Positions 3,000-41,207 of a stretch of DNA of 43,946 nucleotides are shown piece by piece. The DNA is from a virus (Duplodnaviria; Heunggongvirae; Uroviricota; Caudoviricetes). The stretch lies in the IMG/VR virus record IMGVR_UViG_3300045988_019467; one strand, 5' to 3'. The first letter of the stretch is position 1. Every line of letters begins with the position of its first letter. The notes beneath the pieces are model-generated. The model had not been told where the DNA came from. It saw only the letters and a list, made by a program, of their open reading frames with translations, and did no database searches. The translations under genes were made by a program, and so were the position numbers.

Positions 3000-3024
3000 G
3001 TTTTCTTCCTCTTTGCCGTTTAAC

Positions 3025-3056
3025 TGAATAGTACCCTATTATATTGGTGTCTGCAA
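3025..3056 (-). promoter_or_regulatory. class-1 promoter-like element, copy 1 (on minus strand: TTGCAG-N7-TATAAT-AGGGTACTATTCA)
   Basis: Perfect TATAAT on the minus strand about 40 nt upstream of ATG 2999; conserved about 30-bp motif repeated at 5180, 15061, 37806 and 39002, each oriented toward the adjacent operon. Confidence 0.5.
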
Positions 3057-3100
3057 ATATTATTTTTATGCGTTACACTGGCGATACTACAGGAGGGCAC

Positions 3101-4146: not shown

Positions 4147-4605
4147 ATGGGCTTTTTCAAAGTAACTGATGTGCCGTCGCGCCGTGTCGTCCAGTACGCT
4201 CGCGTGTCTGGCTCCGGGGAGAGCGTGGTGTTTATTGAAGATGAAAGTGTGCTCGGTACACCCGTAGACGATATGCCGTTTGCGGATAAAACCGGTATTG
4301 CGCTGCCAGCGGCGGGCATGCTTTACGAGATTCCGTATCTGGCCGATGCTGGTGATGTGTATTTCTCTATGCAACCGAAAGACACTGAATTGGTGGACGG
4401 CAGCGCAACTATCACTGTCGAAGTTAAGGCAGGCAAAGCGCCGTATGTTCTGACCTGGTACAAAGATGGTAAGGAAGTAGTAAACGCCCCGGAAGAGGCT
4501 TTGTCTCTGACGGTTAACGCGGTGGGTGAATACTTCGTTAAAGTTACTGATGCCGATGGTGTAGAGGCCGTCAGTAAAGCGGCGAAGGTCACCAAACCAG
4601 AATGA
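4147..4605 (+). CDS. Ig-like domain protein (possible capsid decoration or accessory structural protein)
   Basis: C-terminal region has an Ig-like beta-sandwich sequence pattern (TITVEVKAGKAPYVLTWYKDGKEV...GEYFVKVTDADG); a similar pattern recurs in 8306..8647. Confidence 0.5.
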   Translation: MGFFKVTDVPSRRVVQYARVSGSGESVVFIEDESVLGTPVDDMPFADKTGIALPAAGMLYEIPYLADAGDVYFSMQPKDTELVDGSATITVEVKAGKAPYVLTWYKDGKEVVNAPEEALSLTVNAVGEYFVKVTDADGVEAVSKAAKVTKPE

Positions 4606-4608
4606 TAT

Positions 4609-4629
4609 AAGGCCCCTTAACGGGGCCTT
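4609..4629. terminator. bidirectional intrinsic terminator hairpin (AAGGCCCC-TTAAC-GGGGCCTT)
   Basis: GC stem followed by TTAGTTTTATTT; between convergent genes 4147..4605 (+) and 4634..5155 (-); same stem sequence as 2655, 12429 and 24233. Confidence 0.6.
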
Positions 4630-4633
4630 AGTT

Positions 4634-5155
4634 TTATTTAAATCGCGCAGGCATTAACACCATAAAGGCCGTGTTTGAAAATGATATTTTGCATCCTCTG
4701 GTTTGGTCCTGGAAATCGAAACGAGAAATTTCATTTTTGTACGCCTTAGAAATCTTGTACGCGTCTGCCAAATAACGCAGAGTGAACCCTATACTATCGA
4801 CAACACCCGGTGTGATGTGCGCCACGCGTTTCCAGTCAGGAAAGTTTCCTTCTACAACATCTACCGGAAGTGTACATATAAGCGCGCGACTATCGTCATA
4901 GAAAGAAACACTGCCGTTGTCGTGGTCTACCTCTGCGTAGTTAAATTTAGAAGGCTCTCTCCCTTTGATATCAATGAGAACCCCTTTCTCAACGTTTGTC
5001 TTCACATTGTCGCAGAACAATCTATGCCCATTCGTAGACACTATCAACCCCTCAGGTTCTATGTAAAAAGCGTTCAAATAGTAGCGCACATCGTTTTTAG
5101 CCCTGCAGATTTTCGCCCCTACATACGCAGGGAAAGTAATTACCGTAGTAACCAT
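4634..5155 (-). CDS. hypothetical protein (moron, unknown function)
   Basis: 173-aa minus-strand ORF with RBS AGGAGATG before ATG 5155; own promoter-like element and terminator; no motif recognised. Confidence 0.55.
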   Translation of the reverse strand: MVTTVITFPAYVGAKICRAKNDVRYYLNAFYIEPEGLIVSTNGHRLFCDNVKTNVEKGVLIDIKGREPSKFNYAEVDHDNGSVSFYDDSRALICTLPVDVVEGNFPDWKRVAHITPGVVDSIGFTLRYLADAYKISKAYKNEISRFDFQDQTRGCKISFSNTAFMVLMPARFK

Positions 5156-5179
5156 TTCTCATCTCCTGTTTAAGTTAAC

Positions 5180-5211
5180 TGAATAGTACCCTATTATATT
5201 GGAGTATGCAA
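5180..5211 (-). promoter_or_regulatory. class-1 promoter-like element, copy 2 (on minus strand: TTGCAT-N7-TATAAT-AGGGTACTATTCA)
   Basis: Same motif as 3025..3056; TATAAT on the minus strand about 40 nt upstream of ATG 5155. Confidence 0.5.
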
Positions 5212-5263
5212 ACTATTTGTTTACGCATTCCAGTTATTACACTCAATTGTAAATGTTGGAATA

Positions 5264-5306
5264 AACTATTCGAATAGTTGACTTTTCACTAAAAATATGC
5301 TAAGCT
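5264..5306 (+). promoter_or_regulatory. 16-bp perfect palindrome AACTATTCGAATAGTT overlapping a sigma70-like promoter (TTGACT-17-TAAGCT)
   Basis: Perfect palindrome at 5264..5279 built from the same CTATTC/GAATAG half-sites as the repeated operator; TTGACT at 5278..5283 and TAAGCT at 5301..5306. Confidence 0.35.
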
Positions 5307-5487
5307 CCACCTGAGCTTGTGAAGTATGAACAAGCGACCGCGTCGCGGGCAGGTAACGGAGCTGGACGTAAGTCCTGAGTGTAGTTACGCTGACGCGTCC
5401 GGAAGGGCCATACTCTATTGCTTGTGTAAAAAAGTAACTGATTTACTGAGATTACGCCGTTTCTGTGTTTAAATGATAAGGACTAGC

Positions 5488-5512
5488 GCCCCGCTTTAAG
5501 GCGGGGCTTTAC
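5488..5512 (+). terminator. intrinsic terminator or attenuator hairpin just upstream of the spanin genes
   Basis: GCCCCGC-TTTAAG-GCGGGGC stem-loop followed by TTTACTT; lies 20 nt before the i-spanin RBS. Confidence 0.4.
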
Positions 5513-5531
5513 TTATCGAGAAAGGAGAAAC

Positions 5532-5918
5532 ATGAATCTTAAAGCAACTGTCGTAGCGGGAGCATGTTTCATCATCCTGGCTTACGCACACGGCATCTAC
5601 CAGTACCACAGCGGCTGGAACGAAGGCCGGGCGAATCTCGTTTCGCAGCAACAGCAGAAAGCACAGGCTGAGTTAGCGAAGAAAACACAACGGCAGCAGC
5701 AAGATGAATCGAAGGCCGCAGCCGCCGACAACGAAGGCAAGACGAAATCAGAGGTGATTACCCGTGAAGTCGTTAAGTACATTAAAACGCCTGGCCGCAG
5801 CGTGTGCACTTTCGACGATGCTCGCGTCCTGCTCAAGTCCCGCGCCGTCGCAAACGCCAATTCCATCCCCGGATACGACAATGATGCAGCCTCCGTGCAA
5901 ACTGGCGCCGCCAAGTAG
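5532..5918 (+). CDS. i-spanin (Rz-like inner-membrane spanin)
   Basis: N-terminal transmembrane helix (VVAGACFIILAYAHGIY) followed by a Q/A/K-rich coiled-coil-like region; an o-spanin-like lipoprotein ORF overlaps its 3' end in another frame; RBS AAAGGAGA. Confidence 0.65.
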   Translation: MNLKATVVAGACFIILAYAHGIYQYHSGWNEGRANLVSQQQQKAQAELAKKTQRQQQDESKAAAADNEGKTKSEVITREVVKYIKTPGRSVCTFDDARVLLKSRAVANANSIPGYDNDAASVQTGAAK

Positions 5919-6027
5919 CGACGCTGACGAGGATTTAGCTATCGACGTCCAGAACGCCGAATGCGTACGGCAGCTGAGGCTGAAAGTGTTCATGTTGCAG
6001 GATTACGTGAGGAATATTCTGGAATAG
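5764..6027 (+). CDS. o-spanin (Rz1-like outer-membrane lipoprotein), overlapping the i-spanin gene
   Basis: Signal peptide with lipobox L-A-S-C, proline-rich mature region; GTG start with RBS GAGGTGA; begins inside the i-spanin gene in a different frame and extends past it. Confidence 0.65.
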   Translation: MKSLSTLKRLAAACALSTMLASCSSPAPSQTPIPSPDTTMMQPPCKLAPPSSDADEDLAIDVQNAECVRQLRLKVFMLQDYVRNILE

Positions 6028-6109
6028 TTGCCTTGCATGTTGGAATAATTTATTCTTGACATGTAAATCCGGGTGGCCCGGGTTCCAACGTCCAGGGGAC
6101 ATACTGACT

Positions 6110-6811
6110 ATGAATCGTTTTTTACGTTATCCGTTCCAGGAAGAAGCTGGGGCAGAAGATAAAGCTGGTGGCGGTGACGCGCCAAAAATGTTCACAGCCG
6201 AAGAAGTTCAGGCGCTGATTGAGAAAGAAGTCGCCGGTCTTAAGGCTAATCAGGAAGCATTGCTGGCGGAGAAGAAAGAAGCCGCTCGTAAAGCAAAAGA
6301 GGCCGAAGAAGAACGGCAGCGCGCGCACCAGGAGGCACTAAAAGCCGCCGGTAAGATGGACGAGTTCGAAAAGACGATTCGTAGCCAGTATGACCCGGTG
6401 TTAGCCGAGAAAGATGGTCGCATCTCCAAAATGGCGGAGCGCATCCTCGGCAGCGAACGTAAAGCGGTGTTAGGCTCTTTCGCAGGTGACTTCATCACCC
6501 CGGAAGCAGTGGACATTCTTGCACCGTTCGTTAAGACTGAGTTCGAAGGCGATGATGTGGTTACTAAGTTTGTTGGCGCAGATGGCAACGTAATCACGAC
6601 TGACCCTGAACAGTTCCGCAAATACCTGCGCGAACATAAAGCGTTTTCGCATTTGATTAAAGCAAATGCAGCTTCCGGCGGCGGGGCTTCCGGTGGCAAA
6701 GGCGGCGGGGCCGCACCAGCGTTTAAAGACATGAGTGAATCGGAGCGTTTAGCTCTGTATAAATCGAACCCTGCCGAATTTGAACGGCAACTTAAAGCCC
6801 TGAGGAAATAA
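6110..6811 (+). CDS. capsid scaffolding protein (putative)
   Basis: Highly charged, Ala/Glu/Lys-rich, coiled-coil-like protein immediately upstream of the major capsid gene; start taken at ATG 6110. Confidence 0.55.
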   Translation: MNRFLRYPFQEEAGAEDKAGGGDAPKMFTAEEVQALIEKEVAGLKANQEALLAEKKEAARKAKEAEEERQRAHQEALKAAGKMDEFEKTIRSQYDPVLAEKDGRISKMAERILGSERKAVLGSFAGDFITPEAVDILAPFVKTEFEGDDVVTKFVGADGNVITTDPEQFRKYLREHKAFSHLIKANAASGGGASGGKGGGAAPAFKDMSESERLALYKSNPAEFERQLKALRK

Positions 6812-6813
6812 TA

Positions 6814-7863
6814 ATGGCAATTACCACTATCGGCGATATCGTAACTGGCAACATCCCGGTCCTGGCGTCTTATATGACCGAGGACCCGGTGGAAAAAACC
6901 GCGTTCTTTCAGTCCGGTATTCTGACCCCGACTCCGTACGCTGCCGAGATTGCTCGCGGCCCGTCCAACATCGCCAACATTCCTTTCTGGAAAGCGATTG
7001 ATACTTCTATCGAGCCTAACTACTCGAACGATGTGTACCAGGACATTGCAACCCCGCGCAACGTGCAAACCGGCGAGATGATGGCCCGTGTTGCGTACCT
7101 GAACGAAGGTTTTGGTCAGGCGGACCTGACTGTTGAACTTACCAGCCAGAATCCGCTGCAATCCGTGGCTTCTCGTCTGGATAACTTCTGGCAGCGCCAG
7201 GCACAACGCCGTCTGATCGCTACCGCGCTCGGTCTGTACAACGACAACGTAGCCGCTACCGACGCGTACCACGAGCAGAACGACATGGTTGTAGACGTGT
7301 CCGCTACTCTGGGCTTCGATGCTGGCGCGTTCATCGACGCTACCCAGACTATGGGTGATGCACTGATGGGTAACGGTGGTGAAGTGCTGGGCGCTATCGC
7401 TATGCACAGCTTCGTATACGCGCAGGCGCGTAAGCAGCAGCTCATTGACTTCATCAAAGACGCTGACAACGACACCCTGTTTGCCACCTACCAGGGCTAC
7501 CGTGTGATTGTTGACGACAGCATGACCGTAGTCGGCACCGGCGGCAGCCGTAAGTTCATCTCCATCATCTTCGGCAACGGCGCTATCGGTTATGGAGAAG
7601 GTAACCCGACCAATCCGCTGGCATATGAGCGCGAAGAGTCCCGCGGCAACGGCGGTGGCGTCGAAACCCTGTGGACCCGTAAGACATGGTTGCTGCACCC
7701 GTTTGGTTACAGCTTCACCAGCGCGGTGATCACCGGCAACGGCACCGAGACTGTTGCACGCTCCGCTTCCTGGCAGGACCTGGCGAACGCATCCAACTGG
7801 AACCGTGTTGTTGAGCGTAAGCACGTACCGATTGCCTTCCTGGTAACTGGTGTAGGGGCTTAA
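6814..7863 (+). CDS. major capsid protein (putative)
   Basis: 349-aa ORF right after the scaffold-like gene and followed by a terminator hairpin; assignment by synteny and size. Confidence 0.65.
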   Translation: MAITTIGDIVTGNIPVLASYMTEDPVEKTAFFQSGILTPTPYAAEIARGPSNIANIPFWKAIDTSIEPNYSNDVYQDIATPRNVQTGEMMARVAYLNEGFGQADLTVELTSQNPLQSVASRLDNFWQRQAQRRLIATALGLYNDNVAATDAYHEQNDMVVDVSATLGFDAGAFIDATQTMGDALMGNGGEVLGAIAMHSFVYAQARKQQLIDFIKDADNDTLFATYQGYRVIVDDSMTVVGTGGSRKFISIIFGNGAIGYGEGNPTNPLAYEREESRGNGGGVETLWTRKTWLLHPFGYSFTSAVITGNGTETVARSASWQDLANASNWNRVVERKHVPIAFLVTGVGA

Positions 7864-7879
7864 GGTTAAGCTATAATCG

Positions 7880-7907
7880 AGAGGGACTTCGGTCCCTCTT
7901 TTCATTT
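7880..7907 (+). terminator. intrinsic terminator after the capsid gene
   Basis: AGAGGGAC-TTCG-GTCCCTCT stem-loop followed by TTTCATTT. Confidence 0.55.
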
Positions 7908-12428: not shown

Positions 12429-12454
12429 AAGGCCCCGAAAGGGGCCTTTTTCTT
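12429..12454. terminator. bidirectional intrinsic terminator (AAGGCCCC-GAAA-GGGGCCTT + TTTTTCTT)
   Basis: 20-mer identical to 2655..2674 followed by a T-run; separates the tail tube gene from the convergent moron operon. Confidence 0.65.
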
Positions 12455-15060: not shown

Positions 15061-15092
15061 TGAATAGTACCCTATTATATTGGGGTGTGCAA
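15061..15092 (-). promoter_or_regulatory. class-1 promoter-like element, copy 3 (on minus strand: TTGCAC-N7-TATAAT-AGGGTACTATTCA)
   Basis: Same conserved motif; TATAAT on the minus strand about 40 nt upstream of ATG 15033. Confidence 0.5.
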
Positions 15093-15199
15093 GTAATATG
15101 GTAGAATAATTTTGCGCCTAGTGTCGCACACGAAAAGCGGGTGGTTCCCGTCTGGCGCATTTCCTTTAACCAGTAACCTCTTAACCAAAGGATTAAAGA

Positions 15200-22236: not shown

Positions 22237-24228
22237 ATGTCAAGCGGATGCGGTGATGTTTTAAGCCTGGCGGATTTACAAACCGCCAAGAAACACCAGA
22301 TTTTCGAAGCAGAGGTAATTACCGGTAAATCTGGCGGAGTAGCCGGGGGTGCAGATATTGATTACTCCACCAATCAGGTTACTGGACAGACCCAGAAGAC
22401 GTTACCTGCCGTGTTGCGCAGCCTGGGTCTAGCCCCTGCATCTTTCGATTTCACATCTGGGGGTACTTTAACTACTGACGACAGGAACAAGGCCGTGTTA
22501 TGGCCCTCTACGGACGGCGGCGACGGGGACTGGTACTATTGGGCAGGTAGTTTGCCGAAGACTATACCGGCATCATCTACACCCGCATCTTCCGGCGGTG
22601 TAGGGGGAGGCGCATGGTTGTCTGTTGGGGGGGTTATTTTACGACAGGACCTGGCTGCTTTTGGTGGAGCATCATTGATTGGTCCAGGTGTAATGTCCCG
22701 CGGAAACGATAAGTTTTCTATCATGCAAGGGAGAACCGGGGAGTATCAAAACGATGGTATGACATACGGGATAGGAGTTATCCTTACGGACCCTATCACT
22801 GGCACTATACCCAACGCCAGCACTGCAAAATTTAACTACCTTGCTATCATAGACGACCAGGTTAATGCTGTTGACGATTTAACGGCCGGGACAAAAGTTG
22901 ACGGGCTACAGGTAAACCATGTTTTCGGCGGCACCGCAGCCAAAGGTGGCAGGCACGCGGCAGAATTTGTATCTACCCATAAATCACCTACCAGTGTCGA
23001 CAACCCGGACCGTAACTATGTGGGTGTGGTTGGGTTGGCAGTGTCGCAAAATGGCGACGGAGGGGCAGTATCAACGTCCCCGAGCACATTCAAAGGTGGG
23101 TACTTTGGCGGGAATATGTACGGTAGTTTGAGCCCATCCGCCGTTGGTGTATATAACGTGACCGCATGTGAGTTTAACACAGTAGCCTCCGAAGGGTCGT
23201 CTGTATGGTATAGGTCAGGGATTCAGGTCATTGGTGGTGGGGCCGTACAAGGAAGCGCCGTAGACGTTGGGGTTGCCTTGTCGAATCTTTCGACAGCTAC
23301 GGTCCGATGGAGAAACGCCTTTCGTATAGGGAACATGAATGGGGGGCACGCGTTAGCATCGGACAGCAAAATACTTGTAGCGTTTACCGATGTGACGTCG
23401 ATCGCATCTGGGTTCGAGATACCAAAGTGCTCAACTACTATTTTAACATCCGGAGACGTTAATTTACAGAACGATAAATTAATCATGAGCGCTTCTGGGT
23501 CTGCTATTGAACTGGGAAGCACCACAGCCCCAGGTACGGCATACATAGACTTTCACTCAAGCGGAAACCCTAACGATTATGATGCAAGGGTTGTGGTTAG
23601 TGGCGGGGCGTCGTCTTCCGGGCAAGGCACTTATGGGGTTAACGCGGGTGTTATTCAGCTTAATGCTTCTACTGAAGTCATAGCCGCCGCCAACATAAGA
23701 CCCTCTACGGACAATACCATATCGAATGGCACCGCGTCTAGACGGTGGTCTGTGGTATACGCGGGAACCGGGACGATAAACACATCAAATGAAGACCTCA
23801 AAGTACGGGATAAGATACTTGAAGCCGAACGTGCCGCGGCCCTGGAAATAAAGAATGACATATGGAAATTTAGATTCAAAGATGCTATCGCCGAGAAAGG
23901 CAACGGTGCCAGGTATCACTTTGGCGTAGGTGCGCAATCTATAGGTAAAATTTTGCGTAAGCATGGACTGGACCCTGAAATGTACGCTTTCTACTGCCAC
24001 GATACCTGGGACGCGGAGTATGAGCCAATCATGGCTAAGCGTACCGTACTTAAGGACCAAGAAGTAACGGAAATAGACGACCTAACCGGCAAAACTATTA
24101 CTACCACTAAGACGATTGAAGTCGAGGAAGAGTACGACACCGGGGAAAAGAGATGCACCTTAGAGGCAGGTGAAAACTTCGGCGTTCGCTATGAGGAACT
24201 TCTTTGTTTTATTATGGCGGCCCTGTAA
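22237..24228 (+). CDS. tail fibre with C-terminal intramolecular chaperone (peptidase S74-like) domain
   Basis: C-terminal region (...RAAALEIKNDIWKFRFKD...YHFGVGAQSIGKILRKHGLDPEMYAFYCHDTWDAEY...) matches the self-cleaving chaperone domain of endosialidase and L-shaped tail fibres; Gly-rich central region. Confidence 0.65.
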   Translation: MSSGCGDVLSLADLQTAKKHQIFEAEVITGKSGGVAGGADIDYSTNQVTGQTQKTLPAVLRSLGLAPASFDFTSGGTLTTDDRNKAVLWPSTDGGDGDWYYWAGSLPKTIPASSTPASSGGVGGGAWLSVGGVILRQDLAAFGGASLIGPGVMSRGNDKFSIMQGRTGEYQNDGMTYGIGVILTDPITGTIPNASTAKFNYLAIIDDQVNAVDDLTAGTKVDGLQVNHVFGGTAAKGGRHAAEFVSTHKSPTSVDNPDRNYVGVVGLAVSQNGDGGAVSTSPSTFKGGYFGGNMYGSLSPSAVGVYNVTACEFNTVASEGSSVWYRSGIQVIGGGAVQGSAVDVGVALSNLSTATVRWRNAFRIGNMNGGHALASDSKILVAFTDVTSIASGFEIPKCSTTILTSGDVNLQNDKLIMSASGSAIELGSTTAPGTAYIDFHSSGNPNDYDARVVVSGGASSSGQGTYGVNAGVIQLNASTEVIAAANIRPSTDNTISNGTASRRWSVVYAGTGTINTSNEDLKVRDKILEAERAAALEIKNDIWKFRFKDAIAEKGNGARYHFGVGAQSIGKILRKHGLDPEMYAFYCHDTWDAEYEPIMAKRTVLKDQEVTEIDDLTGKTITTTKTIEVEEEYDTGEKRCTLEAGENFGVRYEELLCFIMAAL

Positions 24229-24232
24229 AACT

Positions 24233-24258
24233 AAGGCCCCAAACGGGGCCTTTTCTCT
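24233..24258. terminator. bidirectional intrinsic terminator (AAGGCCCC-AAAC-GGGGCCTT + TTCTCT)
   Basis: Same stem as 2655, 4609 and 12429; between the tail fibre gene and the convergent minus-strand replication module. Confidence 0.6.
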
Positions 24259-24394
24259 ACTCTTCTGATAACTTCTCCAGTACAAACTCCAGTTGCGCAT
24301 TAGCGGCATCTCTCTGTTGCCGTAGTCGTAGAACCTCCTCCTCAAGTTCCTTGATACGTTTTTGCAATGCCGGAATCGGGGCTATGATGTTCAT
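24257..24394 (-). CDS. small coiled-coil-like hypothetical protein
   Basis: 45-aa ORF whose ATG overlaps the stop of the upstream Toprim gene (ATGA); ends at the terminator. Confidence 0.3.
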   Translation of the reverse strand: MNIIAPIPALQKRIKELEEEVLRLRQQRDAANAQLEFVLEKLSEE

Positions 24395-24906
24395 CTGGTA
24401 AATTTCCTCGCAAGATACGTTATTTCTTCTTCACAAAGTTCATCAAGGTCGTTAGATACAAATCCTCTGGTGAATGTTTTGCGGAACTTTAATCCAGCTT
24501 TATCATTGTCACCAGCGCACACCCAGTCATACGGCAAAAGTGACATTTGCTGCCGTAGGTCGGTTGATATATTTGACCCCAACGCGCTAACTGCATTAAA
24601 CCCGCAATTCATCAAAGCAACAGCTTTAAATATGCTTTCGGTAACAAATACCACCCCGCTACTTGGCAAATACTCAAGCCCCCATAAACACGGCCTTGTT
24701 GTTCGGGTAAAGTACCGCGCGTCTTTAGGGTTTTTACAGTTCTTTTCTGCGTGTGGTTTGTAGTGCTGGTATCCGCGTAGCTTACCGTCAAAACCCCACA
24801 GGTAAAACGTAGCTACTCCAGCGCCTAAGACTACACGTAAACGGTCGGCGTCAAAACCACGCGACAGCAGATGCGCCTTAAGTAGAAGCTCCTCACCATT
24901 CATCAT
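24391..24906 (-). CDS. Toprim-domain protein (primase-like)
   Basis: Toprim signature: conserved Glu (VFVTESIF) and DxD (CAGDNDKAG). Confidence 0.5.
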   Translation of the reverse strand: MMNGEELLLKAHLLSRGFDADRLRVVLGAGVATFYLWGFDGKLRGYQHYKPHAEKNCKNPKDARYFTRTTRPCLWGLEYLPSSGVVFVTESIFKAVALMNCGFNAVSALGSNISTDLRQQMSLLPYDWVCAGDNDKAGLKFRKTFTRGFVSNDLDELCEEEITYLARKFTR

Positions 24907-26327
24907 TTCTTACCTCTGCGCTTCATATAATTAAGTAGTTCGTCCTGTACAGACCTTTTCTCGTCTGTACGCGCGGCGACAACTTCATCAAGAGTATCTC
25001 TGGCTATTATTTGATAAATGAATACAGACCGTTTGTATCCAGATTGCATCTGCCTTACCGGGCCTATGCGCTCGATAACCTGCAGATAATGCTCCAGGTT
25101 CCACCCCTGACTCATAAATGCCATGTGGTGTCCGCCGTGTTGTAGCGACAGCCCGTGACCCGCGGAGGCCGGGTGTATCAGGAGCATAGGTATTTCACCG
25201 CGGTTCCATGCTTCCATCTGCTTATTACCCTTAGCACCTTTGGCAAACGCCTGCGCCTGAGGGAATCGCTTAAGGATGCGCTCCAGTTCGTGCTTGAACT
25301 GATAGGCCACCAGCAACGGCGCGCCCTGTAACTCCTCTACAATGGACTCGAGCGCATCAAGTTTCGTGTCGTGCACTTTTTCCCAATCTTTGGTTGCTTC
25401 GCCGTCGGGGCCCGACACATATACGGCACCGGATGCAATCTGCAAGCACTTCGACGTCTTCGCCGCGGCGTTAGCCGCTTCAACTTCCCCACTTTCCAGT
25501 TCTGCGAATAGCTTCTCCTCCATATCTATGTACGCCTGACGCGCTTTCTTCGGCAGGTCAATTTCCACCGGCACGATAATAGGTGCTTCACAACCAAACC
25601 ACTCGGCAGCGTCAATCGTGAGACTAATGTCCTTCATCTTCTGGTGAATCTCGTTATCTGCTCCCGGGCGGGCATGGTACTCGCGTGCCATCGCTGATTT
25701 GCCTTTCTGTACCGAGTTAAACCATCTGTCGGTGAATGCCGTGTACGAGGAACCCAGGCGCTCACCTGCGTCGATAAACCAGTTCTGACCCCACAAGTCC
25801 TTGAGGCCGTTTGGCGAGGGCGTACCGGTCAGGTTGATAAAACGCTTAACCTTTCCGAATGCCACTTTACTAAGTGCCTTTGCCCTCTTGCTACCACCTG
25901 AACGGCTGCGGAACGATTTCAGCTTCGTGCTCTCATCAGCAACGATAACCGTAAAAGGCCAGTCGTCTTTGCCGTAGTAGTCAATCAGCCACTCTATTAC
26001 CTCGTAGTTGATACAAATCACATTGGCGTCTGACTCCAGCGCCGCGATGCGGCGCTTCTCTGAACCAGTTGCATCGGCGACACGCAGACAAGGGAATTTC
26101 CATTTCTCTTGTTCCGCGGGCCACGTACCCGACGCAACGCGTAAAGGGGCAAGAATTAACACTCGGTCGTCGTCATTAAGTTGCCCATTACGGAACAGGC
26201 GGTTTAAAGTCCACAAGACGCTGCCCGTCTTCCCGGCGCCCATGCTTGCCCATATGTTGCAGCGATGGTGCCGCAACATGAACGAAGTCATTAGCTTCTG
26301 GTACTCGCGCCTTTGAAACTTACTCAT
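24903..26327 (-). CDS. SNF2 / DEAD-DEAH-type superfamily 2 helicase
   Basis: Walker A SMGAGKTGS, DExx-like box VIVADEST, and C-terminal helicase-domain-like region. Confidence 0.65.
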   Translation of the reverse strand: MSKFQRREYQKLMTSFMLRHHRCNIWASMGAGKTGSVLWTLNRLFRNGQLNDDDRVLILAPLRVASGTWPAEQEKWKFPCLRVADATGSEKRRIAALESDANVICINYEVIEWLIDYYGKDDWPFTVIVADESTKLKSFRSRSGGSKRAKALSKVAFGKVKRFINLTGTPSPNGLKDLWGQNWFIDAGERLGSSYTAFTDRWFNSVQKGKSAMAREYHARPGADNEIHQKMKDISLTIDAAEWFGCEAPIIVPVEIDLPKKARQAYIDMEEKLFAELESGEVEAANAAAKTSKCLQIASGAVYVSGPDGEATKDWEKVHDTKLDALESIVEELQGAPLLVAYQFKHELERILKRFPQAQAFAKGAKGNKQMEAWNRGEIPMLLIHPASAGHGLSLQHGGHHMAFMSQGWNLEHYLQVIERIGPVRQMQSGYKRSVFIYQIIARDTLDEVVAARTDEKRSVQDELLNYMKRRGKK

Positions 26328-27117
26328 TTACGGCCCCCATGAACGCCTTTATAAATTCAGCGGCTACTTGCGGGACGATAGCATTGCCGTAACCGCGCAG
26401 GCGCCCCACTCTGGCGGGAACCCCATTATCTGACGAGCCATAATCGGGTGGAATGATTCGAGTTTTACCATCTGCTCCTTTGTCGGTTTTCCATTCGGAC
26501 CAAAAGTGTGTAGCCACATCTGGCGATATAGCGTGTCGTTTCTCATCCTCCCATCGTTTCTCATGAATGACCGACTTAAATCCCCTGAATCCCTGTGTGA
26601 CCGTGTTGTAGCGGTAGCCCAGGGTTGCCCCAAAGAAGAGTCTTTCTCTTTTGTGCGGTGCGCCGACGCTACAAGCTGGGAGTACGGCAAACCCGACGGC
26701 GTAGTCTTCTCCTTCCAGGTGAGTTTGTAAATCGCACATCCACGATTTTGCAATTGCTGGCGCAACCTGCTCCCCAAAGAGGACTGGAGGGTGGCACTCG
26801 CTGATGAGGTCGAGGAAGACTGGCGCGAGGTGTCTCGGGTCGAACTGTCCGAGTTGTTTTCCTGCCGCGCTAAACGGTTGGCAAGGCGGGCTTCCCGTCC
26901 AGAGAGGCGTATCTTCCGAAACTCCCGCAAGTCTGAGCGCGAGAGGCCAGCCGCCGATACCAGCGAAAAAATGACACTGGGTGAATCCGTCAAGGTCTTC
27001 TGGTCTAATTTCGGTAATGCTTCTTTCATCTACAACTCCAAAGGGTATTTGACCCTGTTTTATTAATTCACGCAGCCACGCGGCGGCGCCTTTATCCCAT
27101 TCATTGTAATAGTTCAT
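26320..27117 (-). CDS. DNA (cytosine-5) methyltransferase, orphan
   Basis: C5-MTase motif I FFAGIGG, motif IV GSPPCQPFSAAGK (catalytic PCQ), ENV-like GEQV, C-terminal GYGNAIVPQV; no adjacent restriction endonuclease. Confidence 0.7.
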   Translation of the reverse strand: MNYYNEWDKGAAAWLRELIKQGQIPFGVVDERSITEIRPEDLDGFTQCHFFAGIGGWPLALRLAGVSEDTPLWTGSPPCQPFSAAGKQLGQFDPRHLAPVFLDLISECHPPVLFGEQVAPAIAKSWMCDLQTHLEGEDYAVGFAVLPACSVGAPHKRERLFFGATLGYRYNTVTQGFRGFKSVIHEKRWEDEKRHAISPDVATHFWSEWKTDKGADGKTRIIPPDYGSSDNGVPARVGRLRGYGNAIVPQVAAEFIKAFMGAVNE

Positions 27118-27305
27118 TTCGCCACCAGAACTAACTCTTTACGCCCGAACGCCGTAACGTTACCCGTTACATCTTCGATAACCAGTTTCCCGTTCGACTC
27201 GACGAACACCGTATCAACGGCAACAGGACGACGTGTCTTAACGTTGAAAATCATGTCACCCGGTACGATGTCACGTGCTGGTTTGCGGTCATATTCGTGT
27301 TTCAT
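27114..27305 (-). CDS. hypothetical protein
   Basis: 63-aa ORF with start overlapping the downstream MTase gene. Confidence 0.4.
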   Translation of the reverse strand: MKHEYDRKPARDIVPGDMIFNVKTRRPVAVDTVFVESNGKLVIEDVTGNVTAFGRKELVLVAK

Positions 27306-27323
27306 TTCTCAATTCCTTATAGT

Positions 27324-27340
27324 TAAGGCCCCGAAGGGCC
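27324..27340 (-). other. intergenic GC hairpin (AGGCCC-CGAA-GGGCCT), possible attenuator or RNA stability element
   Basis: Stem-loop between two co-oriented genes, without a clear U-tract. Confidence 0.3.
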
Positions 27341-27344
27341 TGTA

Positions 27345-27599
27345 TTAGTTAGATAATTCGGCTTGAACTTGCTTAATAAGTTCTCCAGCCGTTGTGAAAT
27401 CTACAGACAGCCCTTTAGCGACGTCTTCCGCAAGCACCTTGCGGCCAACTGACCCGAAACCGAGAATACGGTTTACTTCCGAAACCTTCATAGACCATGA
27501 GTAATTAGCTGACGCTCCTGTGTATTTACAGATACGAACAGATGAATCGATTGAACCCATAACCATGGTGTTTACTGACAGTTGAAGTTCGATAGCCAT
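27345..27599 (-). CDS. hypothetical protein
   Basis: 84-aa ORF with RBS AAGGAA, downstream of class-2 promoter copy 7. Confidence 0.4.
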   Translation of the reverse strand: MAIELQLSVNTMVMGSIDSSVRICKYTGASANYSWSMKVSEVNRILGFGSVGRKVLAEDVAKGLSVDFTTAGELIKQVQAELSN

Positions 27600-27600
27600 T

Positions 27601-27918
27601 TTATAATTCCTTATATTGTTGGGGTATGTGCTTACTATAATAGTTCGCTATTAGGGTGTCAACCTGTTTTATCGAACCAACGACAAAAACATTTGCACCG
27701 CGTTTACGCATACGCTCATGCTCTCGTAACTGGTGGGGGTCTGGCTTCGTGTTTTCGTCTTTCTTAACCTCGACGAACCAGACGATGCTGTAGGGGAGAA
27801 TTACCAGCAGGTCAGGAGCGCCCACTCTATTTTCGTAGGAAAGTTTACGAACGAGGCCCCCCAGGGCCTCGAATCGCTCTTTTGCGTATTTCTGCACGCG
27901 CCCCTCAGGCGTACTCAT
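27601..27918 (-). CDS. VRR-NUC domain nuclease (PD-(D/E)xK fold)
   Basis: PD...(D/E)xK-like signature (GAPDLLVIL ... VEVKK) in an approximately 105-aa protein; start taken at ATG 27918. Confidence 0.55.
   Translation of the reverse strand: MSTPEGRVQKYAKERFEALGGLVRKLSYENRVGAPDLLVILPYSIVWFVEVKKDENTKPDPHQLREHERMRKRGANVFVVGSIKQVDTLIANYYSKHIPQQYKEL
27623..27662 (-). promoter_or_regulatory. class-2 promoter, copy 7 (minus strand: TTGACACC-N12-TATTATAGT), inside the 3' end of the VRR-NUC CDS
   Basis: Minus-strand TTGACA (plus 27657..27662) and TATAGT (plus 27634..27639) with about 18-bp spacer; near-identical elements at 31214..31242 and 34199..34228. Confidence 0.5.
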
Positions 27919-27994
27919 AATACACACCCCTCACGTTTCGTATGTTCAATCCCGCAGCGCGGACAGATTCGACAGTCTTCTTCGTAGAACCAAT

Positions 27995-28132
27995 AAATTT
28001 TCACTCCATCACCCACAGATAAATTGCGATGAACATGCCCAATACAGCAACCATCATGCTGTATTGACTCTCGTGACAGTAGACACCGGCGGCGAATCCC
28101 GCCAGTACCGCAATAATCAGTTTACTTGGCAT
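27995..28132 (-). CDS. small hydrophobic protein (putative, very short)
   Basis: 45-aa ORF with two hydrophobic segments between the DNA polymerase and VRR-NUC genes; too short for confident calling. Confidence 0.2.
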
Positions 28133-30323: not shown

Positions 30324-30475
30324 TTCTTTTTCCTTAAATCCAGTGCCTTCGTTTCACTTAATCTTATTTTCATACAATCACGGCAAATCCACACATGCCT
30401 GTACCCGGCCCGGTACTCATCTGCGTACCACGGAAGCGGTTTCATATAGCGGTATACGTGCTTACAGAAAATCAT
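30320..30475 (-). CDS. small Cys-containing (zinc-ribbon-like) hypothetical protein
   Basis: 51-aa ORF whose stop overlaps the DNA polymerase ATG (ATGA); contains C-x25-C-x2-C. Confidence 0.3.
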   Translation of the reverse strand: MIFCKHVYRYMKPLPWYADEYRAGYRHVWICRDCMKIRLSETKALDLRKKK

Positions 30476-30495
30476 TATTTTCGACCCTTAGTAAA

Positions 30496-30515
30496 AAGGC
30501 CCAATGAAGGGCCTT
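30496..30515 (-). terminator. intrinsic terminator-like hairpin after the SSB-like gene
   Basis: AAGGCCC/GGGCCTT stem followed on the minus strand by TTTTTAC. Confidence 0.4.
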
Positions 30516-30534
30516 AGTTAAATTGATTCAGATA

Positions 30535-31161
30535 TTAACGGCGACGACGTTCACGGCGTGGTGCTCCATCTTCTTCGTCGTCTTCCAGGTCGTCGACACT
30601 TGCGGCGACTTTAGAGCCGCCGAACGCTTTACCTTCGCCGACGTATTTAATGGCCAGCAGGTTAACGCCGAGAACTTTGTATTTCTGGCTAAACCAGATT
30701 TCAACGCTTACGTTGGCAACACAGCCACTGTAAACCTGTTCGCCTTCAATCTGTTCTCCGTCTACATTAAAGTCCTGCTCTACCTGAGTCTCACCTTTTT
30801 TAGAGGTTACAATCAGTGGCTGTTTCTGTGCCTTCGCTTTGAAGTAGAATCCTTCCGGGAAATCTTCAAACGGATTGTCGCGCTCAGCAATATCTTTAAT
30901 CGCACATTTATCCATGTGCTTACCCTCGCCGTAGTTGGATTTCATCCATTTCTCGGCAGCGGCTGCGCCTAACGCTTCTTCAACTACGGCGTAAACAGTG
31001 TCGTAGAGCGCATCGATTTGAGCATGGTCAGACGGCAGGATAATAGTCGCGCTGTACTGGCCTTTAGTGATTGAGCCATCATCGTTTTCACGGTCTTTTT
31101 CGCGTTCGAATACGTTAACCCATGCAGTGTTTACTTTACGCAGATTCAGTTTCAGTCCCAT
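30535..31161 (-). CDS. single-stranded DNA-binding protein, T7 gp2.5-like (putative)
   Basis: Size, position upstream of the DNA polymerase, and an FGG-plus-acidic stretch (AFGGSKVAASVDDLEDDEEDG) recalled as similar to the gp2.5 C-terminal region; basic extreme C-terminus is atypical. Confidence 0.4.
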   Translation of the reverse strand: MGLKLNLRKVNTAWVNVFEREKDRENDDGSITKGQYSATIILPSDHAQIDALYDTVYAVVEEALGAAAAEKWMKSNYGEGKHMDKCAIKDIAERDNPFEDFPEGFYFKAKAQKQPLIVTSKKGETQVEQDFNVDGEQIEGEQVYSGCVANVSVEIWFSQKYKVLGVNLLAIKYVGEGKAFGGSKVAASVDDLEDDEEDGAPRRERRRR

Positions 31162-31213
31162 TTGATTTCTCGCTTTTAAGTTTACTCCGGGAGCTGCCCG
31201 GCCAGTGATTAGA

Positions 31214-31242
31214 ACTATAATAGCTAACTATTCAGGTGTCAA
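31214..31242 (-). promoter_or_regulatory. class-2 promoter, copy 8 (minus strand: TTGACACC-N12-TATTATAGT)
   Basis: Minus-strand TTGACA (plus 31237..31242) and TATAGT (plus 31214..31219); about 50 nt upstream of the SSB-like ATG at 31161. Confidence 0.5.
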
Positions 31243-31397
31243 CGCTTAATTTTAGAAACTTTCTCACACCAAAGAAAATAGCGCTCGATTGACTCACTAT
31301 CGCGAAGTTTACGGTCTACCCACGCGATAGACGAAGTGAACGCGCCTATTACTATAAAAGGAGAAACAAGCGCCCAATACTTAATTTTACGAATCAT
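31239..31397 (-). CDS. small membrane protein (one TM helix)
   Basis: 52-aa ORF with hydrophobic core (YWALVSPFIVIGAFTSSIAWV); ATG overlaps the stop of the upstream gene (ATGA). Confidence 0.35.
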   Translation of the reverse strand: MIRKIKYWALVSPFIVIGAFTSSIAWVDRKLRDSESIERYFLWCEKVSKIKR

Positions 31398-33153: not shown

Positions 33154-33407
33154 TGGTCAATTAAATGTCGTGTCTGGTGGTGGCAATGCATCGCCCATCC
33201 ATACATCGACTCGAAGACATAAAAGTCAGGTTTGGCGAAAGTCGTGCGCTTAATCTGCGACACGTGACGGCCTATATCTTTAGGCCGTGGTACTTTGCCT
33301 AAGTACGCCATCTCTTCCATCTGGTGCGCACCGGACGGCGCGCGCAACAGCCATAACGCCTCTGTGTTATCCCGCCGGTCAACGGCGCGGTAGAGTTGGT
33401 AAATCAT
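33135..33407 (-). CDS. hypothetical protein
   Basis: Start set at internal ATG 33407 (RBS GAGGG) to avoid overlap with the upstream gene; His/Cys-containing C-terminus. Confidence 0.35.
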   Translation of the reverse strand: MIYQLYRAVDRRDNTEALWLLRAPSGAHQMEEMAYLGKVPRPKDIGRHVSQIKRTTFAKPDFYVFESMYGWAMHCHHQTRHLIDQWESRV

Positions 33408-33419
33408 AATTCTGACCCT

Positions 33420-34187: not shown

Positions 34188-34228
34188 GGTATGTGCTAAC
34201 TATAATAGCGAACTATTCATGGTGTCAA
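34188..34228 (-). promoter_or_regulatory. class-2 promoter, copy 6 (minus strand: TTGACACC-N13-TATTATAGT)
   Basis: Minus-strand TTGACA (plus 34223..34228) and TATAGT (plus 34199..34204); divergent from the Cro-like gene. Confidence 0.5.
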
Positions 34229-34292
34229 TGGGCTTTTCTAAAATAATTAATATGGTACTATTCACATATCAACTGACTAAGGAGTAATTGAC

Positions 34293-37426: not shown

Positions 37427-37703
37427 ACATAATCGCACCTATTGACATTATGAAAATCTTCGTTTAAGGTGCTTCTATATCTTAGTTACTTTGATTCCTG
37501 TTCACCTTGTAAGAATGTTTAACCCGTGCGTCAAGCAAAGGGTTAAACACAGGCTTACTGAACACAAGAATTATCGTAACTTTCCTTCCTTAGTATCTCC
37601 GGTTGCCCTGGGCAAGCTCTATTCTCATCAGCGGCATATCTCTTAAGTATCTGATTTTCTTAATGTGCCGTAGATTCGCAACCGTAAAAATGTAACGATT
37701 ATT

Positions 37704-37724
37704 GGGCAGGCTTAAGGCCTGCCC
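37704..37724. other. GC-rich hairpin (GGGCAGG-CTTAAGG-CCTGCCC) in the large intergenic control region
   Basis: Inverted repeat around a CTTAAG core, with only a short T-tract after it. Confidence 0.3.
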
Positions 37725-37805
37725 TTTAGTTACCAAGTAACAAGAATAAAGGCACAACCTTTCCTGAAGAATCACAACGGCAACGTAACCATTTTCAATG
37801 AATCT

Positions 37806-37838
37806 CTTGCGCACCCCAACATAATAGGATACTATTCA
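37806..37838 (+). promoter_or_regulatory. class-1 promoter-like element, copy 4 (TTGCGC-N7-CATAAT-AGGATACTATTCA)
   Basis: Same motif as the minus-strand copies, here on the + strand about 45 nt upstream of ATG 37870. Confidence 0.5.
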
Positions 37839-37869: not shown

Positions 37870-38061
37870 ATGTTTAAGAAGGGTCAGTTGGTTAAATACT
37901 CCGACGATAAACACGGCATAATTGAATTAAAATCTGCTTTATTTCCAGGAAAGTACGTAGTTACCGTGCAAAATGTGAGAGGAGTAAATTCACAAATATA
38001 CGTAGCGGAGGAGAACTTAAAACTAATCGGCAACAATTTTAAATTCAAAGAGGCGAAGTGA
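37870..38061 (+). CDS. hypothetical small protein
   Basis: RBS GAGGAG 9 nt upstream of ATG 37870; first gene of the rightward block. Confidence 0.45.
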   Translation: MFKKGQLVKYSDDKHGIIELKSALFPGKYVVTVQNVRGVNSQIYVAEENLKLIGNNFKFKEAK

Positions 38062-38267
38062 TGGAAGAATTATTTGAAGAACTGAAACACCATAAACTGG
38101 AAGAAGTGCATTCCATAATTACCCAGTACAGGGTTACTTTATTAGACGGTCCAACTATTTCTTCCGGGTCATGCGAGGATTCGCGGAAATTTTTACGTTT
38201 ACTACGAACGGCATCGAATCATGGTGCCAGTGCCGACGACTCTGAGGGAGGTTGCCGTGTTAAGTAA
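38058..38267 (+). CDS. hypothetical small protein
   Basis: ATGA start/stop overlap with the preceding gene. Confidence 0.4.
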   Translation: MMEELFEELKHHKLEEVHSIITQYRVTLLDGPTISSGSCEDSRKFLRLLRTASNHGASADDSEGGCRVK

Positions 38268-39001: not shown

Positions 39002-39033
39002 TTGCACACTGGGATAGAATAGGCTACTATTCA
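39002..39033 (+). promoter_or_regulatory. class-1 promoter-like element, copy 5 (TTGCAC-N7-TAGAAT-AGGCTACTATTCA)
   Basis: Same motif; + strand, about 45 nt upstream of ATG 39062 and just after the terminator. Confidence 0.5.
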
Positions 39034-40167: not shown

Positions 40168-40476
40168 TTGGATAAATTTACTGAAACAGTGACAGGCTGG
40201 CTTCTGGCTGCCGCGCTAGCCGGAGGGGTCATCGGACTACGACAACATAAGTCCGTTATTTCTGGCCCTATCGACGGCTTCTGCTTTATTGCTACCGGCT
40301 TCACTTGCGCCGTATTTGGCGCACCTCTCGCGGCTCAATGGTTTGGCATTACCGGTGAGCGTGAGATAGCTGGCCTCGGATTCATCATTGCCATTCTCTG
40401 GATGCCCATCTATTCCCGCCTATCCGGTATCGTCGCCGGAGAATACATCGCACGTCGAGGAGGCACAGATGAATGA
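40168..40476 (+). CDS. holin (three predicted TM helices; TTG start)
   Basis: Three hydrophobic helices and a charged C-terminus; RBS GGAGG 7 nt upstream of TTG; immediately upstream of a second membrane protein and the endolysin. Confidence 0.5.
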   Translation: MDKFTETVTGWLLAAALAGGVIGLRQHKSVISGPIDGFCFIATGFTCAVFGAPLAAQWFGITGEREIAGLGFIIAILWMPIYSRLSGIVAGEYIARRGGTDE

Positions 40477-40741
40477 GTTATTCTGGTTCGGTGGTATGCT
40501 GGCAATCGGAGGCGCATCGCTGTTTAATGTGTATCACCCCCGCGTGGACGACGGACTATTTGGCCGGGTGCTCTATATCCTGACTGCTATTGTCTGCGCC
40601 GCCGGAGGCATTCACCTGTTACAGGGCAGCATGTCGCCCACGTTGCCTGAGACCTTAATCACATTAGTTGCGCTGCGTCAGATTCGTCAGGCGTGGCTGT
40701 CGTACGGAGGGCATAAGCGTGTCTCGAAACATTTCAGATAA
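40469..40741 (+). CDS. second holin-like membrane protein (holin or antiholin; two predicted TM helices)
   Basis: RBS GAGGAGG; two hydrophobic segments; overlaps the holin 3' end and the endolysin 5' end. Confidence 0.4.
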   Translation: MNELFWFGGMLAIGGASLFNVYHPRVDDGLFGRVLYILTAIVCAAGGIHLLQGSMSPTLPETLITLVALRQIRQAWLSYGGHKRVSKHFR

Positions 40742-41207
40742 TGGATTGCATTTTACCGCTGCGTTTGAGGGATTCCGTGGAACTGCGTATCGCGCTACGC
40801 CGAATGAGAAGTACCTGACTATTGGGTATGGAAGCTATGGCCCTCATGTGTATGAAGGGCAGAAGATTACGAAGGGGCAAGGCCTCCTGTTACTGAATCG
40901 TGATATGGCTAAGGCCGTAGCCGCGGTTGACGCCGCAGCGCACCATTCACTGACACAATCACAGTTCGACGCTGTGTGTGACCTGGTCTACAACGCGGGA
41001 GCTGGTGTGATTGCCGCAACTACCGGCACAGGTAAAGCGCTGCGTTCTGGCGATATTGCTACGCTGCGGGCTAAGCTGGCGCTGTTCATCAACCAGAACG
41101 GCAAACCGTTACTCGGCCTGCGTCGCCGCACTGCGGGACGTCTGGCCTTGTTCGACGGTAAACCGTGGCAGGAGGCTGAGGCTATTGGGCGCGCGGTGAA
41201 AGGTTGA
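40719..41207 (+). CDS. endolysin, lysozyme-like (GH24-type)
   Basis: N-terminal motif GLHFTAAFEGFRGTAYRA...TIGYG typical of phage lysozymes; GTG start with RBS GGAGGG 8 nt upstream (the frame is open from 40668). Confidence 0.65.
   Translation: MSRNISDNGLHFTAAFEGFRGTAYRATPNEKYLTIGYGSYGPHVYEGQKITKGQGLLLLNRDMAKAVAAVDAAAHHSLTQSQFDAVCDLVYNAGAGVIAATTGTGKALRSGDIATLRAKLALFINQNGKPLLGLRRRTAGRLALFDGKPWQEAEAIGRAVKG

Follow-up and report, generated by a model that had tools for sequence, protein, structure and literature searches.

A conserved, covariation-supported RNA leader precedes the overlapping spanin genes of Kagunavirus-type phages, and its 5' module has a second copy in some relatives

What kind of element precedes the spanin genes of a tailed phage when these genes stand apart from the other lysis genes, and how might it influence the genes behind it? 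The question is raised by the overlapping i-spanin and o-spanin genes, and the long leader in front of them, at positions 5264 to 6027 of the IMG/VR virus record IMGVR_UViG_3300045988_019467, a stretch of 43,946 base pairs (bp) that was analyzed at its full length and is called the window here. The window is a complete Kagunavirus-type siphophage genome (Guernseyvirinae, coliphage). Its region 4600-6900 is 93 to 95% identical to Escherichia phages fPoEco01, Ivi, and Schulenburg and to many others, and 484 phage records, mostly of Salmonella and Escherichia phages, match this region. We find that the spanin genes are of an already catalogued type. The leader in front of them, as judged by comparative sequence analysis, is a previously undescribed, covariation-supported RNA family of the Guernseyvirinae that is present in up to two copies per genome.

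Results

Compensatory changes support a folded leader RNA

Using the i-spanin, we collected 46 loci from viral contigs, all of which harbor one of two kinds of leader, the Kaguna type or the Jersey type, except L017, whose contig ends ~60 nucleotides (nt) upstream of the gene. The two types are ~60% identical and can be aligned from the promoter to the AUG, and each variant folds alone into an identical irregular hairpin consisting of the helices P1 and P2, an asymmetric internal loop, and the helix P3 (Table 1). In the window, CCG.GUCGC pairs with GCGUCCGG in P1, 5350-5357 pairs with 5384-5392 in P2, and 5362-5367 pairs with 5372-5377 in P3, which is closed by a GUAA loop. The internal loop, some bases of which are conserved, reads GGAG in its 5' strand and AGUGUA in its 3' strand; the conserved GUA/GA bases were considered by eye as a K-turn or loop-E motif, for which we make no claim. 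In front of this core hairpin lies a 5'-terminal hairpin, P0, which is retained as GCUUG/CAAGC in the leader L026 and as ACGCU-UUC-AGCGU in Jersey-type leaders. Behind it lies a linker and tail with conserved linear motifs, one of which, AAGUAACUGAUUU, forms a small hairpin (AGUAA/UUACU).

The leader folds better than shuffled sequence (z = -2.9), and a covariance model built from 11 Kaguna-type sequences only was able to find the Jersey-type leaders at 34 to 36 bits (E ~1e-5). In the first model-based alignment, 92.6% of the cells were paired, compared to 25 to 38% in slid controls, and 9 pairs had changed on both sides. When metagenomic sequences were added to give 29 distinct sequences, 94.9% of the cells were paired, compared to 29 to 42% in slid controls, 11 of the 23 pairs had changed on both sides, and none of 500 shuffles attained either the observed covariation score or the observed percentage paired. 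Because these alignments were fitted to the model and represent effectively only three or four clades of low diversity, we regard the statistics as supportive and not as final. Two G-U pairs in P1, found in 27 of the 29 sequences, would be C-A mismatches if read on the other strand; as they work only on the plus strand, the fold belongs to the plus-strand transcript. An element acting at the level of DNA, such as an origin or a pac site, was set aside because the helices depend on these G-U pairs. These comparisons indicate that the 5' module of the leader is a plus-strand RNA structure maintained by compensatory changes.

Rfam 15 contains no match to the leader at the gathering threshold, and at E <= 10 the only match is CC0196, which covers 20 nt of the GC hairpin described below with 14.2 bits against a gathering score of 35. 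Identity of the leader with put RNA, boxA, or an Rfam family was considered and dropped, as no similarity was found; the CUAUUG motif is not boxA.

The idea that the leader is more conserved than the spanin gene was also rejected, and mosaicism was found instead. In comparisons of Kaguna-type with Jersey-type loci, the leader (~60% identity) is the faster-diverging part, the genes being 70 to 79% identical. A mosaic boundary is present at the junction of leader and spanin genes: L034, L035, L037, and L048 combine Kaguna-type leaders (94 to 96% identity to window 5227..6631) with Jersey-like spanin and scaffold genes (52 to 81%), and L026 is the converse mosaic, with a diverged leader (81%) and near-identical genes (92 to 96%).

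The leader also contains a small open reading frame (ORF), and it is very improbable that this ORF encodes a protein. An ORF of 34 to 55 amino acids (aa) can be found in every leader, and the repeated occurrence of a segment with the translation AFGRAxLYC is explained by the conserved UUCGGAAGGGCC..CUAUUGC beneath it. Indels of 1 nt disrupt the reading frame in L004 and L012, and L011, L020, L026, and the Jersey-type leaders have other start codons and N termini. No Shine-Dalgarno (SD) sequence is seen before the ORF, whose ATG is situated in the P0 loop, and the variable sites are spread 5/5/4 over the three codon positions. With no PHROG or Pfam match in addition to the frame breaks, variable starts, and even spread of sites, a coding ORF was rejected.

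The 3' domain carries a hairpin that is not a conserved terminator

From CGCCGU on, Kaguna-type and Jersey-type sequences are independently predicted to adopt one shape. A clamp helix (GUUUCU 5459-5464 paired with AGAAAC 5526-5531) covers the end of the SD sequence (AAGGAG, 5522-5527) and the spacer between SD and AUG, and it encloses a lower stem (GAUAAG 5475-5480 paired with CUUAUC 5512-5517) and a GC upper stem (5488-5507). The Jersey-type sequences differ in a compensatory manner in all three helices, with GUAU/AUAC in the clamp, UAUACG/CGUAUA in the lower stem, and a C-G pair changed to G-C in the upper stem.

The first-pass annotation had described an untranslated region of ~180 nt ending in a terminator-like hairpin 20 nt before the ribosome-binding site of the spanin genes. 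The length is right for the ~175 nt that precede the hairpin, while the distance from the predicted start to the AUG is ~220 nt. The hairpin is present at 5488..5507; it lies ~20 nt before the AUG and ~10 nt before the SD sequence. With its 8-bp stem and the tail TTTACTTATC (UUUACUUAUC), it is the top terminator-like match, and the other Kaguna-type leaders likewise have a GC-rich stem with a U-tract directly behind it. A role as terminator does not hold up across the family. No U-tract is present in the Jersey-type tail, UUAGCGUA, or in the tail of the second copy described below, ACUGCGUU or ACGUUCGU, and the would-be U-tract of the window is one strand of the co-varying lower stem. Without conservation of the U-tract, intrinsic termination is not a conserved property of the GC hairpin. 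By eye, we saw no alternative (antiterminator) pairing common to Kaguna-type and Jersey-type leaders, and there is consequently no support for a classical attenuator. It is plausible, from the predicted structure, that the 3' hairpin and the clamp damp translation of the i-spanin.

Promoter and operator-like repeats

The palindrome-overlapped promoter claimed for 5264..5306 is indeed there, with a perfect 16-nt palindrome (5264..5279) and conserved promoter elements. The -35 element, the TG, and the TA..CT of the -10 element are kept across Kaguna-type leaders, Jersey-type leaders, and the second copy. The promoter was missed by a consensus scan because its -10 element fits the consensus at only 3 of 6 positions. 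A literature search on transcripts and promoters of Jerseyvirus gave nothing of relevance. Transcription of the leader is predicted to start at ~5313. At this position the sequence shows a -10-like hexamer repeat, which in Jersey-type leaders is exact (TACGCT-AAC-TACGCT) and which may be a sigma-dependent promoter-proximal pause element.

An operator-like inverted repeat lies just upstream of the -35 element, and GGAATAAnnTATTC is found again, without any mismatch, at 6042-6055 before the scaffold gene; Jersey-type loci keep GAATA-N3-TATTC. We regard these GAATA/TATTC repeats as a candidate protein-binding operator. The strongly conserved element before the scaffold gene, itself a probable promoter, overlaps the stop codon of the o-spanin gene. 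It has the same -35 context as the leader promoter (GAATAGTTGMCT), a perfect palindrome, GGAATAATTTATTC (6042-6055), in its spacer and -10 element, and a hairpin, CCGGG-UGG-CCCGG, at 6069-6081. The sharing of the GAATA/TATTC repeats by the leader and scaffold promoters suggests a common DNA-binding regulator. A third GGAATAAnnTATKC site, at 8857, was discarded, as it is probably merely an SD sequence with a start codon.

The 5' module recurs at the early locus of relatives

A first pattern scan of viral contigs with ACCGCGNNGC..YCGGAAGG was too loose, returning 120 stretches that are nearly all chance matches in GC-rich contigs, and it exposed a second copy of the module (L106) on the same contig as the leader L004. 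Phage Schulenburg (L050) also has a second copy, and these copies score 74 and 29 bits with covariance model R1. A stricter scan of metagenomes gave 38 matches, and several contigs carry two copies; those contigs recovered near full length (~39 to 45 kb) resemble genomes of the subfamily, and the remainder are shorter fragments. As for distant homologues outside the subfamily, neither the locus of Klebsiella phage VLCpiS6a nor a scan of one genome per bacterial species produced one, the latter giving only a 738-bp contig. This contig (L174; NZ_JACVEL010000048.1), from an assembly of Taishania pollutisoli (Bacteroidota), contains a Jersey-type leader core (33.9 bits) and is most likely phage contamination of the assembly.

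The second copy consists of the same promoter, P0, core hairpin, and AAGGGCC..CUAUUG, followed by a tail of its own and a GC hairpin without U-tract. On its 3' side is a separate early promoter and then the first early rightward gene; in Schulenburg, annotated terminators are present further downstream. In Schulenburg the second copy also lies under two annotated minus-strand "hypothetical proteins" (057 and 058), which are probably spurious. The core variant of the L004 spanin leader is also found in some second copies, suggesting that the two copies exchange sequence. In some relatives, the early rightward genes are headed by the 5' two-thirds of the leader too, and the module is consequently specific neither to spanins nor to lysis.

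In the window, a search with model R1 detected no second copy. Its early locus has a different element, on the plus strand at 37442..37735 and immediately in front of the rightward genes' early promoter. This element consists of a promoter (TTGACA, 17 nt, TAAGGT) followed by a predicted noncoding and very strongly structured RNA of ~260 nt (z = -6.4), which includes an irregular hairpin of ~100 nt and ends in a canonical terminator, GGGCAGGC-UUAA-GCCUGCCC-UUUAGUU. This RNA is present in 222 phage records, and nothing is annotated there among the 8 records listed. It shares with the spanin leader only short tail motifs, CUCUAUU, AAGUAUCUGAUUU, and GCCGUAGAUU; motifs related to the leader tail occur in the second copy of relatives and at 37600-37680 of the window.

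The spanin genes and their setting

The overlapping spanin pair that had been proposed for this locus, with a transmembrane (TM) helix in one protein and a Pro-rich sequence behind the lipobox LASC in the other, is borne out by PHROG matches, a hydrophobic stretch, and the gene overlap. The best 19-residue Kyte-Doolittle window of the i-spanin has a value of 1.72 (residues 5-23). In the o-spanin, the lipobox, as read from the sequence, comprises residues 20-23 with Cys23, and 9 of the 64 mature residues are Pro. The o-spanin gene begins inside the i-spanin gene and ends beyond it, with an overlap of 155 bp (5764..5918). Phages Ivi and Schulenburg annotate the i-spanin homologue, and Ivi annotates an o-spanin of identical extent. 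In the survey of Kongari et al. (2018), the 28-member "Jersey family" has mostly overlapped spanins, and the overlap in phage Jersey is 155 bp (PMC6139136). The pair in the window shares with this family the N-terminal TM domain of the i-spanin, the o-spanin lipoprotein in the +1 frame, the extent of the overlap, and the gene position, and it differs in nothing of substance. By these sequence criteria it belongs to the family, and 5532..6027 is a standard overlapped two-component spanin of Jersey/Kaguna-type phages, catalogued in 2018.

The spanin genes are separated from the cassette of two holins and endolysin by 8.3 kb on the circular map, as the first-pass annotation had stated, although the layout it singled out is not unusual, being the published standard arrangement of the Guernseyvirinae. 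In fBC-Eco01, the three lysis genes other than the spanin genes are situated near the genome end, away from the spanins (PMC9825357). The full annotation of Schulenburg gives an identical layout of lysis genes, and many relatives annotate the separation. Remoteness of the spanins from the lysis cassette is therefore already known and ordinary for this phage group. The position of the spanin genes between the head morphogenesis and scaffold genes likewise matches annotated Kagunavirus and Jerseyvirus genomes. In the nearest phage outside the subfamily, Klebsiella phage VLCpiS6a, whose capsid protein is 44% identical, the genes for head morphogenesis, scaffold, and capsid adjoin one another, and neither spanin genes nor a leader intervene. 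This indicates that the block of promoter, leader, and spanin genes is a subfamily-specific insertion into the head gene cluster.

The gene upstream of the leader reads in the opposite direction, and a bidirectional terminator (4608..4630) precedes it; Jersey-type loci have a strong terminator of this bidirectional kind directly upstream of the leader. Downstream, the scaffold and capsid genes follow the spanin genes in the same direction of transcription. On this plus strand, a terminator-like site comes after the capsid gene (7879..7900), and another is present at 12429..12448. In the mechanical ORF list, the scaffold ORF (6056..6811) begins at TTG 6056; relatives and a conserved SD sequence (GGGGA) place the start at ATG 6110.

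Different relatives give different names ("DNA polymerase III sliding clamp," "beta clamp domain protein," or "RusA-like resolvase" [phrog_3007]) to the upstream gene, a 173-aa ORF (4634..5155, minus strand) that separates the head genes from the leader and has no Pfam match. Some Kagunaviruses have other small ORFs in its place, others have an HNH endonuclease insertion alongside, and it is absent from Jersey-type loci. The early-promoter motif before it (5175..5212) bounds the spanin unit on the left and is not a part of it. This repeated motif, TGAATAGTACCCTATTATATTGG, which reads TTGCAT, 17 nt, TACTAT on the opposite strand, is present in seven copies (3020..3057, 5175..5212, and 15061..15092 on the plus strand and 37816..37838, 34248..34264, 39018..39033, and 34201..34219 on the minus strand), located before early genes and before minus-strand genes inserted in the late region. 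For fBC-Eco01, the same consensus has been described as that of a predicted "phage promoter" (PMC9825357). No RNA polymerase is recognizable among the proteins encoded by these phages.

One further structured RNA was observed, the Rfam int-alpA RNA (RF02996), at 15111..15175 on the plus strand, with 36.6 bits against a gathering score of 35.8. A promoter-like TTGGGG, 16 nt, TGgTAGAAT immediately precedes it, and the gene of the tail assembly chaperone follows closely. As the head of the third rightward block (tail genes), after minus-strand genes, its position is analogous to that of the spanin leader.

Table 1. Features of the spanin locus and related elements (window coordinates unless another genome or contig is named)
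Feature	Position	Strand	Basis and details
Operator-like inverted repeat GGAATAAACTATTC	5258-5271		just upstream of -35
Perfect 16-nt palindrome AACTATTCGAATAGTT	5264..5279		abuts -35 TTGACT
Leader promoter, sigma-70 type	5278..5306	+	-35 TTGACT (5278-5283), 17-nt spacer, extended -10 TGcTAAGCT (5298-5306); read from sequence
-10-like hexamer repeat at predicted transcription start	5312..5318	+	TGAGCT/GAGCTT; also 5' strand of P0
P0, 5'-terminal hairpin	5315..5335	+	GCUUGU-loop-ACAAGC; within 1-2 nt of predicted 5' end
48-aa ORF in leader (rejected as coding)	5326..5472	+	36 aa in most relatives
Core hairpin, 65 nt, three helices (P1-P3)	5338..5402	+	covariance model and covariation
Linker and tail	5403..5460	+	conserved linear motifs AAGGGCC, CUAUUG (5415-5420), AAGUAACUGAUUU (5432-5444), and GAUUACGCCGU
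3' domain	5459..5531	+	independent folds of Kaguna-type and Jersey-type sequences
i-spanin gene, 128 aa, N-terminal TM helix	5532..5918	+	phrog_2536 "Rz-like spanin," E = 6.6e-55, full length
o-spanin gene, 87 aa, GTG start, +1 frame	5764..6027	+	phrog_5672 (E = 4.4e-30) and phrog_1267 (E = 2.1e-18), "Rz-like spanin"
Promoter-like element before scaffold gene	6022..6081	+	GAATAG and TTGCCT (6028-6033), 17 nt, TATTCT (6051-6056); strongly conserved in Kaguna-type and Jersey-type loci
Repeated early-promoter motif	5175..5212	-	TTGCAT, 17 nt, TACTAT; drives divergent 173-aa ORF 4634..5155
Two holins and lysozyme-family endolysin	40168..41207		protein-family matches
Second copies of the module	L050 (Schulenburg) 37877..38130; L106 9562..9860; L208 660..1000		also in L177, L181, L183, L195, L204, L193, L209, and L210

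Discussion

Our preferred interpretation, to which we would assign a probability of about 40%, is that the leader is a bipartite operon-leader RNA acting in cis, by which expression of the spanin and late genes would be limited or licensed. The leader is the 5' untranslated region (UTR) of the spanin genes because these have no other promoter, and the spanin mRNA must carry it because only ~10 nt separate the hairpin from the SD sequence. In our model, the host RNA polymerase would start at ~5313, and the leader would act in cis on its own transcript. The 5' module would fold at once behind the polymerase and, like the nut and put elements at phage operon heads, would set whether and how far polymerase and transcript proceed, with the hairpin at 5488-5517 and the later terminator at 7879-7900, after the capsid gene, as checkpoints. 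P0 may protect the transcript. The 3' module would lower spanin output by partial termination, in Kaguna-type leaders, and by occlusion of the ribosome-binding region, so that the spanins would be a minor product of the late structural unit and not of the holin/endolysin unit. The independent and possibly attenuated control suggested by the first-pass annotation thus survives in the promoter, the structured RNA, and the covered SD-AUG spacer; a terminator attenuator and specificity for lysis do not. A cis function is favored by the presence of a paralogous promoter, P0, and core at the start of the early rightward array in Schulenburg and several metagenomic genomes.

A number of observations weigh against this interpretation. 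The transcripts discussed here are predicted from sequence, and the alignments, besides being fitted to the model, are of the low diversity of three or four clades. The clamp is supported by a single double change, and one Jersey variant (L041) does not form it. Because P0 and the -10-like repeat share sequence, the repeat may be conserved for RNA pairing alone. The leader has no similarity to put RNA, either with model R1 in the early region of HK022 or in Rfam at E <= 10. Behind the second copy at the early locus come a GC hairpin and next a separate early promoter, a layout that fits an independent small-RNA gene better, and the early locus of the window has a different structured RNA with a canonical terminator.

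The last two points raise the possibility that the leader is a stand-alone stable small RNA of ~195 nt that would act in trans on phage or host targets, with the spanins expressed only by read-through of the 3' hairpin. The unit has its own promoter, 5' hairpin, and 3' hairpin, the last of which scores as terminator-like in the window. In relatives the second copy is attached to no ORF, and the structured RNA with canonical terminator at the early locus of the window (z = -6.4) is found in 222 phage records. The tail motifs AAGUWWCUGAUUU and GCCGU are common to these RNAs and could be seeds. The early-locus layout would fit a trans-acting small RNA about as well as a cis leader. However, a U-tract is missing from the 3' hairpin in both the Jersey-type leaders and the second copy, which should make these hairpins poor intrinsic terminators as well as poor 3' ends of the Hfq type, no target found in the window is complementary over more than 11 nt, and the leader must serve as the 5' UTR of the spanin genes anyway. 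We consider a small RNA unlikely on balance, while taking it as a serious contender. A processing or stability signal, in which the long irregular hairpin, for example as an RNase III site, together with P0 would set the 5' end and the half-life of the spanin and late mRNA, is credible and likewise a serious contender, although it seems rather unlikely to us. The helices amount to 23 bp in total with a conserved asymmetric internal loop, paralogous copies lie behind promoters at two loci, and P0 is at the very 5' end; a 5' stem-loop is reported to protect mRNAs in E. coli (Emory et al., 1992). The resemblance to the RNase III hairpins of T7 lies in the ~60-nt hairpin, the asymmetric internal loop, and the occurrence of paralogs behind promoters. 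The leader differs in its short upper stem, as P3 has only 6 bp, and its cleavage is putative, as sequence cannot by itself reveal cleavage. The conserved single-stranded AAGGGCC and the tail motifs would also be left unexplained.

The arrangement at this locus further recalls the pR'/6S/tR' region of lambda, in which a promoter, a ~200-nt leader, and a terminator-like hairpin stand immediately before the lysis genes that head the late operon. On that model, a constitutive promoter would produce a short terminated RNA until a Q-like protein is loaded at a sigma-dependent pause, and the fold would be incidental. The -10-like repeat at the start site and the operator-like repeats at the promoter would be in agreement with this, yet the leader fold is under selection and conserved with covariation, whereas the U-tract is not conserved, and only the spanins, and not holin and endolysin, follow the leader. 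The Kaguna-type repeat, TGAGCT, also lacks the critical A at its second position. No Q gene is recognizable; neither a Q-type nor an N-type antiterminator is annotated in Schulenburg or in the PHROG-annotated relative vB_VIPECOTPH05A, in which many small ORFs are uncharacterized. We therefore regard a Q-type module as improbable.

If the leader does act in cis on its own operon, the closest known parallels are the nutL/nutR elements of lambda and putL/putR of HK022, which in each case are two paralogous promoter-proximal RNA elements at two operon heads (PMC9378689). In HK022, the promoter is followed directly by putL, which comprises two irregular stem-loops, and the sequence transcribed early contains a -10-like element (PMC9378689). 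The leader likewise has two irregular stem-loops behind a sigma-70 promoter and a -10-like element in its early transcribed region, its paralogs in relatives head two long gene arrays that contain terminators, and no dedicated protein factor is recognizable. On the other hand, the leader has one short hairpin and one 65-nt hairpin of three helices, while put has two hairpins of ~35 nt. The phage is a virulent siphovirus and not lambdoid, a separate promoter lies between RNA and genes at the early locus, and the second copy is found in relatives only and not in the window. Model R1 gave no match at E <= 10 in HK022 24000-33500, and putL, located there by hand (L172), has a different fold. The likeness between the leader and put is one of position and architecture and not of family membership. 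It is a tentative and, in our estimation, unlikely proposal by analogy that P0 and P1-P3 represent a new class of promoter-proximal RNA that would act on the transcribing polymerase in the manner of put and nut and enable host RNA polymerase to read through the hairpin and the terminators of the late gene arrays and, in some relatives, of the early rightward ones, in a subfamily of virulent siphoviruses without a recognizable antiterminator protein.

The Kaguna-type leader is present in ~180 deposited genomes and, judging from the sampled loci, Jersey-type phages harbor their leader as well; Kagunavirus and Jerseyvirus phages are widely isolated as candidate agents for phage therapy and biocontrol. 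Public RNA-seq data exist for a close relative, the Kagunavirus vB_Eco_K1B4 (PMC12645636), whose genome (OQ696342) is 93.6% identical to the window in this region. Whichever mechanism applies, annotations should stop naming small "hypothetical proteins" across the leader. The leader marks the start of the late structural transcription unit, and its paralog in relatives marks the start of the early rightward genes. Action in cis on elongation would make the leader only the second type of antitermination by RNA alone that is known from phages, and action in trans would make it a small RNA conserved among phages.

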